A stretch of DNA of 64,000 bases from assembly GCA_964526475.1 (NCBI GenBank), contig CAZGKF010000001.1, positions 12,138 through 76,137 of the forward strand, in the 5' to 3' direction. The notes beneath the pieces were generated by a model that was not told where the DNA came from, did no database searches, and saw only the letters and a program-made list of their open reading frames with translations. The stretch is from an uncultured Bacteroidaceae bacterium. GTDB lineage: Bacteria > Bacteroidota > Bacteroidia > Bacteroidales > GCA-2748055. Each line of letters opens with the position of its first letter. The first letter of the stretch is position 1. Position numbers and translations under genes: made by a program. This document shows positions 31,001 through 37,000 of the stretch, piece by piece.

Positions 31001-34000
31001 ATCCACCTGAGAATAATTTCTCATTATTTACCATTGCCCGAACAACCAATACACATGAGATTGATCCGCAATCAAGCAGTGGTACAGGAGGAACAAATAA
31101 CCAGAGATATTTAATGGGTGCTGCCAACAGGGGTGACAATGCAGGCCAGGGAATATCCCTTGGAACCAACGGTATTTCAAATTATGAACATGGAAATTCC
31201 TATATGCCAGCAACAGCTGTTTATACAGGATCTGTTACCGGCCTTAATCTGGTTGACATACTTTATAATAGCCGAAGGCCATATATCTATCTGAACGGAA
31301 ATCTTGTGAGAACCGGAATTGTTTCACCTAAGGCAACTGTATATGCTTCCTATCAAATAGGGGGTATGAATTATGGTTATTTCAATGGCAGCATCCCTGA
31401 AATTATTGTTTTCCCCTATGCCGTTTCTTCGACTGAAAGACAGCAAATTGAATGCAACCAGATTGAATACTACTCTATCCTTGGTCCTTCAACTGCTTCC
31501 ATTGATACAAATAATATATGTCCCGGCGATGGGAATATAACCCTTTCCTATTCCGGAGGAAATTTACGTGCCGGCGCCACTGCTGAGTGGTATAGCGACT
31601 CTGCACTAACAGTAAATGTTGGTTCAGGGAACAATCTTACTATTCCCGCTCCAATAAACAATTCAGAGTACTTTGTGAGATTCGAAGGCATTTGTAATAC
31701 TTCATTACCGGTGAGTACAAATATTACGGTTAAGGAATTGCCCGTTGAACCTGACACGGCTATAGTCGATCGTTCGTCCATCTGTCCTTCCGATGGCAAT
31801 ATTCTTCTTTCCTTTTCAGGTGGTTCATCCGGAACAGGTGGAATAGCAAAATGGTACACAGATGCAGCCTTTACAAATCTTGTGGGTACAGATAATGATA
31901 TAAGTCTACCTGCACCAGCTGCAACACAGACCTACTACATCAGATACGAAGCCGATTGCGGAAATAGTCCGTCAGATAGCGTCACTGTTATTGTTAATCC
32001 ATTACCTGTTGTTACACTTGATTCATTAAGCCCTGTCTGTCTTAACACAGCCAGCTTTGCCCTAAATGGGGGGAATCCCATTGGTGGAAACTATTCCGGA
32101 ACCGGAGTATCGGGTGGCAACTTCGTCCCTGCCACAGCCGGAGCAGGTACGCATTCCATTACATATACCTACACCGATGCAAACGGCTGTACCAACTCGG
32201 CTACCAGGGATATTATGGTAAATACAGTGCCAACAGTAACCTTCGATGCCGTATCACCAGTCTGTGTCGATGCACCTGCATTTGACCTTGCCCAGGGTGC
32301 TCCCGCAGGAGGGACATACTCCGGAACAGGGATCACCGCAAGCCCGCAGTTCGACCCTGCCACAGCCGGAGCCGGAACACATACCATCACCTATACCTAC
32401 ACCGATGCCAACGGCTGTGACAATTCGGCTGACAGGGATATTACCGTACATTCATTACCGGTAGTTAGCTTTTCCGGTCTGGATCCTTTTTTTCCAATAA
32501 CAGATCCCTCTACCACATTATCAGGGGATCCTGCCGGCGGAACCTTTTCCGGACCGGGAATCAGCGGGGATACTTTCGATCCTTCCCTTGCCGGATTAGG
32601 AATTCATGAAATTGTTTATGAATATACCGATGGGAATGGCTGTACAAATTCGGATACGCTTTATACAGAAGTACTGGATTATGATTTCATGCTGGGAGCC
32701 ATCACATTGACAGACCTGAACAACTGGTATTCCGGCGATGCTGTTTATACAACAACTGGGGCGACAGCCGACGGACAGGTTGGTTCCTGCTGGAATTACG
32801 GTAATGATCATACACGCTGGTTTAAATTTCAGGCTACCACCAATCAGATTGCGGCCACCTTTCTAACCGGCAGTTCATTTGGCACAGTTCGAAGAATTAA
32901 TGCAGCCATATGGGAATCTGATGGTACTACACAGGTTAATTGTAACCGATATATATCTGATTATGACTCGGTGGTTGTGGAATCCCCTGATTTAGTTCCC
33001 GGTAACTGGTACTATATTTCTGTAACTTCCGGCACAGGAGGATATCGTGGCACATTTTCACTGCGTGTAAATGATCAGGTTGATTACGATTATTACGAAG
33101 GAGCAATCGAACTAACTGATATTACAAACTGGGAGTCCCCTGATGCTGTTTATACAACCCGTGGAGCAACAGCCGACAAAAATGCTGCTCCCTGCTGGAA
33201 TACAAGTCCAAATTATAACAGATGGTTTAAATTCCAGGCAACCACCAATACCATCAGCATACTTGTGCGCCGGGGAGGTGCATATGGCACTATTAGACGC
33301 ATTAACGCAGCAATCTGGGAAGCTGATGGGACAAGCATGGTAAGCTGTAACCGCTATATTGGGAATAATGATAGTGTTTACGTTGAATCTGTTAATCTGA
33401 CTCCGGGAAACTGGTATTATATTTCAGTTGATAATAATTATTCCGGTTACCGTGGCACATTTTCTTTAAGAGTTGATACCAGGGTTACTTACGATTATAT
33501 TGAAGGTGCATATGAGCTTCAGGATTTAAATAACTGGTGTTCAACCGATGCCATTTTCTCAACCTATGGAGCTACTCCCGATCTGAATCCAGGCAGCTGC
33601 TGGAATACTTCCCCAAATTATAACAGATGGTTCAAATTTGTAGCAACTACTCATAGAGTAAATGTGGATATTAAAAGAGGAGGGACACTCGGTACAATAC
33701 GGCGAATAAATGTTGTTATCTGGGAAAGTGACGGCACCACACAGATAAGCTGTAATCGTTATGTCAGTGACAATGACAATGTATCAGTGGGCACCGATCA
33801 GCTCATTCCCGGAAACACCTATTATATCTCTGTTGATAATAATTATTCAGGTTACAGGGGAAGTTTTACCCTTTGTATAGATAATCAGATGGACTATGAT
33901 TACCTGGAAGGGGCAAAAGATATCACAACACTGATCAATTCTTGTTCCAATAATGCAGAATATACCACTATTGGAGCTACTCCTGACAGGACCGCTCCAC

Positions 34001-37000
34001 CCTGCTGGAATACTTCACCAAATTATAACAGGTGGTTCAAGTTCATGGCTACAACCCAATCAATTAATGTTCAATTAAAAAGAGGTGGTGTATTCGGCAC
34101 CCTTAGGAGAGCACAAATAGCCCTGTACGATAAAGACACCACTACTGTTTTGGATTGTAATCGTTATGTAAATGATAATGATGATATTGAAGTTGCCTAT
34201 GAAGGTTTGACCCCGGGTGAATGGTATTTTATTTCTGTGGATAATAATTACAGTGGTTACAGAGGAACTTTTACCCTTTGTCTGGATGATAAGCCGAGCT
34301 ACGATTTTTATGAAGGAGCCATTGAACTGGGTATTATACACGACTGGTCTTCCGACAACGAGGCCTACACAACAATAGGTGCAACACCCGATAAAAACAC
34401 TGCATCATGCTGGAATACCGGACCGAATTATAATCGTTGGTTTAAATTTACTGCCACCACAAGTCAGATCCACATAAAAATCAGGCGTGGAGGGGTTTAC
34501 GGAACAATACGCAGAGTAAATGCAGCCATATGGGAAGCAGACGGAGAAACTGAAGTCAATTGTAAACGCTATGTTAATGATAACGACATTATTGAGGTGG
34601 AATCCATTAATCTTATTCCCGGTAATACCTATTATTTATCTGTTGACAACAACTACAGTGGTTACCGGGGTACGTTTTCATTATATATAAACGATGTGGT
34701 TGATTACGATTTTTATGAGGGAGCCAGAGACGTAAGCCATCTTATAAATTCACAGTCCAGTGATCAGGAATATACCACCATTGGAGCAACATCCGATAAA
34801 AATCCCGGATCATGCTGGAATACAAGCCCAAACTATAACCGCTGGTTTAAATTCCAGGCAACAACACCCGGTATAAACATTATAGTTCTTCGGGGCGGAT
34901 CTTATGGAACAATACGCAGGGTAAATGTCGCTCTTTTTGACGCCGACGGAACCACTGAACTCTCCTGTAACCGTTATGTAAATGATAATGATATTGTTGA
35001 ACTGGATTTCGAAGGGCTTGTTCCAGGAAACTGGTATTATTTTTCTGTAGATAATAATTATTCCGGTTATCGCGGCACATTCACCCTTGCCCTGAATGAT
35101 GCAGTAAGTTATGATTACTATGAAGGGGCTATAGAACTGACAGACATCCACAACTGGTCCTCTCCTGATGCTGCATATTCCACCCTGGGTGCCACCCCGG
35201 ATAAAAATGCTGCTTCATGTTGGAATACCGGACCCAATTATAACAGATGGTTTAAATTCACTGCTACCACACCGGTAATTAATGTTGAAGTACGCAGAGG
35301 CGGATCTTACGGTACCATCCGGCGTATAAATGCAGCTATCTGGGAAGCCGACGGAATCACCGAGGTCGCCTGTAACCGATATGTTAACGATAATGACAAT
35401 ATTTCGGTGGGGGCCAATATTTTGATTCCCGGCAATACATATTATATATCTGTCGATAATAATTATTCCGGTTACAGAGGGACTTTTTCCTTGTATATTG
35501 ACGATGCCATGGACTATGATTTTTATGAGGGCGCACACGAAATTACAGACCTTAATAACTGGGAATCAGGCTTGGCAGAGTTCACCACTCTCGGTGCTAC
35601 AGCAGACAAAAATGCAGCATCCTGCTGGAATACATCACCAAATTACAACCGCTGGTTTAAATTTCAGGCCATTTATACCGATGTTTCCATTCAGGTTTTA
35701 AGAGGAGGAGCCTATGGAAGCATCAGAAGAATAAACCTTGCTTTATGGGAATCAAACGGCACTACTGAACTTGCATGCAACCGCTATGCATCAAATGATG
35801 ATAATGTATCGGTTACATTTTCGGGTTTAATTCCCGGTAACTGGTATTACATATCTGTAGATAATAATTATAGTGGATACCGCGGTACCTTCACCCTCCA
35901 GGTAAGTAATGTTTCTGGTAATGTGTATTATGCCATAGCCGACGGAAACTGGAATACTGCAGCCACATGGTCATTGTCGGAAGGCGGACCTCCCGCAGTT
36001 TCCTCGCCGGCTAACGGAGATGTAGTGTATATAAAAGGTTTTGATGTTACGGTGAGCGGAACCGAAACTTGTGCAGAATTGAATATCGAAACAGAAAACG
36101 ATCAGACTTCCCTTACCATTGATGCCGGCACCTTAACTGTAAACGGGGAATTATCCTTTGTCAACAACGGGTACAATGTTGACGGGTTCATGTCTATTCT
36201 GAATTCAGGAAACCTCTCCGTAATTGATGATCTTGTTAAGGACCGTTCCGGTGGATCCAATACCTTTCAATTGCTGGTACAGGATAATTCCACACTTTTT
36301 GTCGGTAATGATATGAATATCTTTTCTTCAGCAGGAAGCACAATAAATAATGAATTTACTGTTTCAGGAACAGCCACTGTTCAAATTGATCAGGATCTGA
36401 TCCTTCAGAATACAGGAGGAATAAAATCAATTATTACTTTAAACAATTCAGCAGAATTAAAAGTAAAAAGAGATATCCGGCTTACCAGTTCCGCACAGGA
36501 TAAGATGGAAATAGAATTAAACAACGATTCCAGGCTATATCCCGGAAGGACAATTCAAAGAGATGCTACTCCATATGGTATTCTTGACTGTAATGATAAT
36601 TCAACTCTTGTTTTTAACAGTAGCGATTACCTCCAGATCATACCTGAAAATGCCGGTGCAGGATCAGATAATTTCAGTTATCAGAACATTGAGGTGAACA
36701 ATACACGGGTATCAGTTCCTCAACTGAGCCTTGAAGGCCCGGTGTCTGTACCGGGAACTCTTACATTAACAAATGGAGTTATTCTGACCTCTTCAGAGAA
36801 TTTATTGACAATAGAAAATACAGGATCCATTTCAGGAGGTTCAGTAAATAGTTATATTCAAGGCCCAATTGAAATTACGGGCAATACCGCTGTCACTTTC
36901 CCTGTTGGCAGGAACGGAAGATATCAGCCCATTACTGTTTCTGCTCCTTCTTTAATTTCAGATGCCTTTATTGCCGAATACTTTGATGCAAATCCAAATC

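Follow-up and report, generated by a model that had tools for sequence, protein, structure and literature searches.

What is the element that is repeated eight times, with no change in length, in a giant gene of an uncultured Bacteroidaceae bacterium, how old are its copies, and what could they do for the protein that carries them? The gene lies in a 64,000-nucleotide stretch of contig CAZGKF010000001.1 (the window, whose positions are used throughout) and is a single open reading frame (ORF) of 3917 aa on the + strand, at 28084-39837. Its repeat array covers positions 32677-35916 and consists of eight in-frame units of 405 nt, 135 aa each, starting at 32677 + 405*n (n = 0-7). The explanation that best accounts for our results, and that we regard as rather probable, is that this is an array of divergent PF23759 domains, old and constrained, which acts as a stiff spacer rod on a surface protein linked to the secretion system of type IX (T9SS).

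Alignment of the eight units with MAFFT gave exactly 135 columns for protein and 405 for DNA. The units are thus gap-free, as a preliminary description of this DNA had stated from their regular 405-nt spacing. The near-invariant motifs listed there are also as described: RWFKF recurs every 135 aa between residues 1578 and 2523 of the protein, YRG[TS]F recurs with the same period, and 39 protein columns are invariant among the eight units, Cys38 and Cys89 included. All units are read on the + strand. Unit 1 (32677-33081) is the most diverged, with 46-63% amino acid identity to the others, and is followed by unit 2 (33082-33486), unit 3 (33487-33891), unit 4 (33892-34296), unit 5 (34297-34701), unit 6 (34702-35106), unit 7 (35107-35511) and unit 8 (35512-35916). 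The 135-aa frames cut before unit 1 and after unit 8 contain no unit motif, the preceding stretch being unrelated in sequence, and a hidden Markov model (HMM) of the family found exactly eight units in the host protein, with no degenerate ninth. Tandem Repeats Finder reported nothing at the array because the copies are too diverged, which is not evidence against a repeat. Antisense ORFs of 88-113 aa within the array were dismissed since the + frame shows a ratio of non-synonymous to synonymous substitution rates (dN/dS) of 0.05.

The copies have diverged considerably. Mean pairwise identity among the eight units is 61% for DNA and 61% for protein, the protein values spanning 46 to 77%, and identity at codon positions 1, 2 and 3 is 67%, 75% and 42%, respectively. 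The divergence at the DNA level and the many third-codon differences that had been pointed out for units 5 and 7 are thus real; these two units share 70% DNA identity and 77% protein identity, with a proportion of synonymous differences (pS) of 0.80 and of non-synonymous differences (pN) of 0.16. Over all eight paralogous units, mean pS is 0.78, which means synonymous saturation, and mean pN is 0.27; dN/dS among the paralogues is about 0.2 or lower where dS is computable, saturation preventing a precise ratio. In four related genomes of uncultured Bacteroidales or Bacteroidaceae, units at the same position are 76-91% identical, compared with about 50-70% for units at other positions. Since the same-position units are the closest ones across genomes, the duplications are older than these lineages and no homogenisation has taken place afterwards. 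The positional orthologues show dN/dS values of 0.05-0.06 at dS 1.2-2.4, far from 1, and functional constraint therefore stands. As judged from these alignments, the comparison shows that the eight copies arose before the window organism split from related Bacteroidales, that each has been kept at its own position, and that strong purifying selection has acted on each copy since the split, without length change. Old duplications under purifying selection, as proposed in the preliminary description, are what the data bear out.

Freshly amplified arrays do exist in this family. A Bacteroidales metagenome-assembled genome (MAG), L011, has an array of seven units in which units 2-6 share 97-100% identity (L011:6001-6405 and neighbouring units), which indicates a recent amplification of a kind that the window array does not display. 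The window array could nevertheless be imagined as a recent product of slippage or amplification, or as an assembly artefact of a repetitive region, and the Logan assembly of the source run does break inside unit 2, at 33208-33237. This break lies within the conserved NYNRWFKF-coding stretch, where two contigs share 30 identical bases, and the unit order across it is independently backed because the orthologues show it. We give practically no credence to a recent or artefactual origin, which is refuted by the low protein identity of the units and their saturated synonymous sites, by independent MAGs in which these eight units recur in unchanged order, and by independent Logan contigs from two microbial-mat samples, which cover the array at 100% identity; the window sequence is thus present in microbial-mat metagenomes.

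The constancy of unit length is real and somewhat above background, moderately unusual rather than extreme. All 28 pairs of window units are gapless over their whole identity range, whereas among units taken from different proteins the gapless pairs amount to 18% at 50-59% identity and to 47% at 60-69%. In the wider family, units of 135 aa are the most frequent and lengths lie between 124 and 153 aa, while individual arrays tend towards a period of their own, in runs of 135, 136, 137, 138, 139 or 141. The period of these arrays equals the unit length and they are therefore linker-less.

The preliminary description had left the domain without a named family, and direct scans would lead to the same impression. 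No unit reached the Pfam threshold, all direct matches being sub-threshold, and NCBIfam yielded nothing for the units. The best direct score was that of unit 6 on PF23759 (GBD_T9SS_assoc), 20.7 bits against a gathering cut-off of 27 bits; the other seven units did not match this family at E ≤ 10 and the whole protein was not listed at E ≤ 0.01. Even among 85 diverse family units, only eight matched PF23759 at E ≤ 0.01. Searches of PDB sequences with three profiles (A1, A3 and A5) revealed no real relative, and in the literature we found nothing on this domain under PF23759/GBD_T9SS_assoc, PPC (pre-peptidase C-terminal) domains in T9SS proteins or tandem collagen-binding domains. Weak recurrent matches to Ski2_N and fn3 were judged spurious. 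Those to Ski2_N and to Kelch-like protein 22 span only the CW....NRWF stretch, and the fn3 signal, like the PDB matches to myosin-binding protein C, titin and fibronectin, is due to a shared L..G..YY.RV strand motif.

One might conclude from the silent Pfam, NCBIfam and PDB searches that no named domain is related to this one and that its family or fold is truly new, a possibility which the preliminary description had left open. This is very improbable in view of the profile comparisons. When the alignment of the eight window units (A1) was compared by hhalign with one of 24 units (A5) taken from three bona fide PF23759 arrays (P0221, P0223 and P0225), the two matched over their full length (98.3% probability, E 1.5e-14, 129 aligned columns, columns 3-133 of 135). 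Each of these three proteins scores 255-290 bits on PF23759, with 8-10 individually significant copies, and phmmer finds them with the window array region at E 1e-34 to 1e-57 among 5.8 billion sequences. More generally, relatives score 88-290 bits on PF23759, and the Pfam match always falls within a family unit. The window units and PF23759 also share the order of their motifs: an initial (N/Y)D....A, an aromatic WFKF or WYKF strand, L.(P/I)G..YY(I/V).V and a final G.F.(L/I)C. The full-length match and the corresponding motifs identify the window unit as a divergent PF23759 domain, and the new-family reading, already at odds with a fold that matches PPC and collagen-binding domains (see below), is refuted by the bona fide arrays and the hhalign match. 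At the level of profile comparison, then, the window domain is shown to be a divergent, Pfam-invisible member of PF23759, a known and uncharacterised family and not a new domain. The match to a described Pfam domain means that the locus holds a repeat array of that domain, which supersedes the earlier statement on its family even though the Pfam HMM itself misses the units.

Regarding the fold, the preliminary description had noted a loose resemblance to PPC beta-sandwich domains. A single unit, modeled with AlphaFold from the eight-row alignment, was predicted as an all-beta structure with a predicted local distance difference test (pLDDT) score of 81.5, and the models contain seven main strands per unit. 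Foldseek gave 22 matches to the single-unit model at E ≤ 1e-3, with template-modeling (TM) scores up to 0.64. They include the collagen-binding domains of ColG and ColH, a collagenase PPC domain (5sv5), the g-type lysozyme inhibitor PliG (4dzg) and an enterotoxin C-terminal domain of related structure; carbohydrate-binding modules (CBMs) appear lower in the list. The top matches have E-values of about 5e-5 and TM-scores of 0.5-0.64, and those to 1nqj, 3jqw, 4hpk and 5sv5 range from 5e-5 to 2e-4 with TM-scores up to 0.64. A two-unit model from a 90-row alignment reached a pLDDT of 96.9 and a predicted TM-score (pTM) of 0.89, all five models having a pLDDT of at least 93.9, and its top Foldseek match was the tandem collagen-binding domain of ColG, 5iku. 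The models thus show the window domain as a predicted all-beta sandwich, galactose-binding-domain-like or PPC-like, of the same fold type as the collagenase PPC and collagen-binding domains. The resemblance holds at the level of fold or superfamily and does not extend to membership in the Pfam PPC family: PF04151 did not match any unit at E ≤ 10 (gathering cut-off 25.9 bits), it matched four of the 85 family units at E ≤ 0.01, and the 57.9 bits scored by one relative are summed over ten weak copies. Furthermore, no peptidase family was found anywhere in the 3917-aa protein, so the array does not occupy the position after a secreted peptidase domain that is typical of PPC. As to another PPC trait, calcium bound by the acidic N-terminal segment, D3 and D32 show at least 90% conservation across the family and the unit junctions are acidic.

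Two conserved cysteines had suggested a disulfide, and the wider family strengthens this proposal. Among 703 family units, the patterns at positions 18/38/89/130 are CCCC in 346, CxxC in 158, xCCx in 144, xxxx in 41 and unpaired in 14; C38 and C89 are present or absent together in 694 of the 703. Fisher's test gave p of about 1e-166 for the 18/130 pair and likewise for the 38/89 pair, values that overstate independence because units within one protein are related, while the pattern is still unambiguous. Between the two pairs the association is weakly negative (odds ratios 0.60-0.67, p 0.011-0.041). The paired co-occurrence implies a 38-89 and an 18-130 disulfide. In the window, units 1, 2, 5, 6, 7 and 8 have Cys38 and Cys89 only, lacking the 18/130 pair, whereas units 3 and 4 have all four cysteines. 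It is strongly indicated by this covariation that every window unit carries the 38-89 disulfide and that units 3 and 4 retain the ancestral 18-130 one as well. In the bona fide PF23759 units of P0221, P0223 and P0225, two further cysteines are near-invariant, at positions 4 and 81 of the A5 alignment, which suggests a third disulfide in these proteins, presumably lost in the window subfamily.

The domain is widespread. A profile of the eight units run against 1.84 billion cluster representatives (clusters at 50% identity) found 1635 proteins at E ≤ 1e-3, mainly from Bacteroidota, 237 of them at E ≤ 1e-30. Many of these proteins hold 5-18 copies, 18 being the maximum. In a set with a single genome for each species, the A1 alignment detected 220 stretches that code for relatives; they belong mainly to Bacteroidales, Cytophagales and Flavobacteriales, with one MAG each from Ignavibacteriaceae and Chlorobiota. 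Other proteins join the domain to SprB repeats, HYR, CUB, LamG, CHU_C or Por_Secre_tail, and their annotation is mostly hypothetical. In P0047, P0082, P0115, P0220 and P0222 it stands N-terminal to leucine-rich repeats (LRR) and RHS repeat-associated cores, a polymorphic-toxin-like arrangement, in arrays of 4-10 units as counted for P0047 and P0220, and in P0213 it occurs together with an M23 peptidase. Two units with 62% identity to those of the window were found on a 6.9-kb contig binned as a Desulfurococcales archaeon (L024, JALWZC010000042.1); most likely the contig was misbinned, and the gene is not archaeal.

What may the array do? Its units are acidic (pI 4.3-5.0) and their junctions Asp-rich. 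Taken together with the linker-less arrangement, the disulfides and the confident two-unit model, in which a pTM of 0.89 for two domains implies a defined mutual orientation, these features lead us to infer a stiff rod. Joined head to tail without a linker, and held by an interface of fixed geometry, the units would build a rod stabilised by oxidation and perhaps also by calcium. Assuming about 4 nm per unit, as for a typical beta-sandwich, such a rod would be tens of nanometres long and would keep the N-terminal part of the protein, with its lectin-like and Ig-like modules, at a distance from the cell. Indels would be penalised if the interface is fixed, and this is our proposed reason why the unit length never drifts.

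Several points weigh against this explanation. The argument for a rigid interface is the pTM of a predicted model only, and calcium binding is put forward solely by analogy with ColG. The PF23759 members are devoid of direct functional evidence, and none of the relatives that sequence searches detect is among the solved structures. The giant protein carries no recognisable T9SS C-terminal domain, so that T9SS export is no more than a candidate route for it. Lastly, the conserved polar and aromatic loops of the units (WNTSPNYNR, GTIRR and DNNYSGYRG) would suit a ligand site equally well.

This last point leads to the possibility, less probable in our judgement but worth serious consideration, that the array serves chiefly for multivalent binding. 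The ligand of each unit would be polymeric, for example an exopolysaccharide, a fibre of protein or the surface of another cell, and eight to eighteen copies would add avidity; a rod shape is compatible with this proposal, but binding rather than spacing would have been selected. The closest solved folds are indeed ligand-binding modules, namely those of ColG/ColH and the claudin-binding enterotoxin C-terminal domain, with CBM6/35/36 as weaker matches, but the TM-scores to binding modules are only 0.4-0.6. The Asn/Tyr/Trp/Arg-rich loops are near-invariant in all eight units despite saturated synonymous sites; across the family, however, the conserved positions are mostly core hydrophobic residues and glycines, plus D3, S19 and D32, and the loop motifs are specific to the subfamily. 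Binding would also fit a host protein that has ConA/LamG-like modules and an organism from a microbial mat, where adhesion matters. On the other hand, no family member has a known ligand, and the presence of the domain in proteins as different as the RHS/LRR toxin-like ones and the one with an M23 peptidase better suits a generic structural module.

From its N-terminus, the giant protein comprises a signal-peptide-like start (judged by eye from the translation), two ConA/LamG-like modules, several Ig_7 and PKD_6 domains, the array, an unmatched region and more Ig and PKD domains. The two modules are paralogous, about 275 aa each, and are encoded at 29494-30318 and 30634-31473. The first one scores 36 bits on the alpha-L-arabinofuranosidase B catalytic family, of which only an N-terminal portion is matched (profile positions 13-84), and 22.7 bits on Laminin_G_3, below the cut-off; the second one matched no family. 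By their sequences, both look like lectin modules of the ConA/LamG type. The approximately 550 residues directly after the array (35917-37578) had no family match above threshold; they are rich in short Asn, Gly, Thr and Ser repeats and may form a beta-helix or beta-solenoid.

Three genes follow on the + strand. The first (39900-40703) encodes a 267-aa protein that matches no family and has a signal-peptide-like N-terminus of its own; it is conserved beside the orthologous giant gene. The second (40798-41910) encodes a 370-aa protein in which PKD_6 is accompanied by CHU_C, a signal domain for type IX secretion, and the third (42051-43016) a T9SS outer-membrane protein of the PorP/SprF family (252 bits). 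This four-gene cassette (28084-43016) recurs with the same layout in an orthologous locus from another metagenome, L079, where the products have 2926, 264, 348 and 321 aa. Neither CHU_C (PF13585/TIGR04131) nor Por_Secre_tail (PF18962/TIGR04183) was found by Pfam or NCBIfam at the C-terminus of the giant protein, whose gene ends with a TAA at 39835-39837. Its close orthologues likewise lack a C-terminal sorting domain, that of L079 included, where CHU_C is on a separate neighbour too, and many homologues of the array do carry PF13585 or PF18962. A frameshift or truncation as the cause of the missing domain was rejected, because the downstream ORFs have their own signal-peptide-like starts and the split layout recurs in L079. 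Upstream of the shorter giant gene of L079 (2926 aa compared with 3917 aa in the window) lies a separate gene of 596 aa without a family match (L079:3630-5420); a fusion in one genome or a split in the other may account for this difference in the N-terminal part. The conservation of a cassette with CHU_C and PorP/SprF points to a T9SS-dependent surface display of the giant protein.

PF23759-type domains are common, in adhesin-like as well as RHS-toxin-like and peptidase-bearing proteins, yet neither a structure has been solved nor a function tested for any of them, and the current Pfam and NCBIfam models miss most copies, all eight of the window included. The array overturns nothing known. It offers a clean natural experiment, with old paralogues that are positionally orthologous across species, constant in length and marked by the paired loss of one disulfide. 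Structural and biophysical studies of the construction of giant surface proteins in Bacteroidota thereby obtain concrete targets, and a more sensitive family model obtains seed sequences.

Compared with bona fide PF23759 members, the window array is likewise a linker-less tandem in a giant Bacteroidota surface protein and the cysteines at positions 18, 38, 89 and 130 correspond, but these members usually show DDDVWYKF where the window subfamily has YNRWFKF, and the window units escape the Pfam HMM. The best structural matches of both the single unit and the two-unit model are the PPC/collagen-binding domains of ColG/ColH (PF04151; 1nqd, 3jqw, 5iku, 5sv5). These, too, are beta-sandwiches that begin with an acidic segment; they are similar in size and, in ColG, also placed in tandem. 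However, the TM-scores stay within the 0.5-0.64 range, the window protein has no peptidase domain, and its units have about 30 extra residues ahead of the WFKF strand. The predicted orientation of two units also differs from that of the calcium-bound ColG tandem (TM 0.30-0.34, root-mean-square deviation 17 A). The tandem CUB domains of neuropilin, PCPE-1 and MASP, second-tier matches of the two-unit model (E 1e-7 to 1e-5), are jelly-roll sandwiches in tandem as well, but they belong to eukaryotic extracellular proteins, their TM-scores are 0.24-0.28 with no sequence signal, and the likeness is one of fold class only.

At the level of the whole protein, the closest parallel is SprB of Flavobacterium johnsoniae, a giant T9SS-dependent adhesin of gliding Bacteroidota that is encoded next to sprF. 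The window protein is also a repetitive surface protein of several thousand residues that contains Ig-like and PKD-like domains and whose gene lies just upstream of one for PorP/SprF, and many homologues of its array carry SprB repeats and CHU_C or Por_Secre_tail. It differs in having neither SprB repeats nor a C-terminal sorting domain, CHU_C being on the separate 370-aa neighbour. A more far-reaching proposal, which we put forward as an unlikely one, is that the array is a rigid molecular ruler that sets the reach of an adhesin, with the interface and not a ligand site under selection, and that the giant protein gets to the surface through the neighbouring CHU_C protein and PorP/SprF. If true, this would be a two-part T9SS surface display of a kind not described for SprB-type adhesins.

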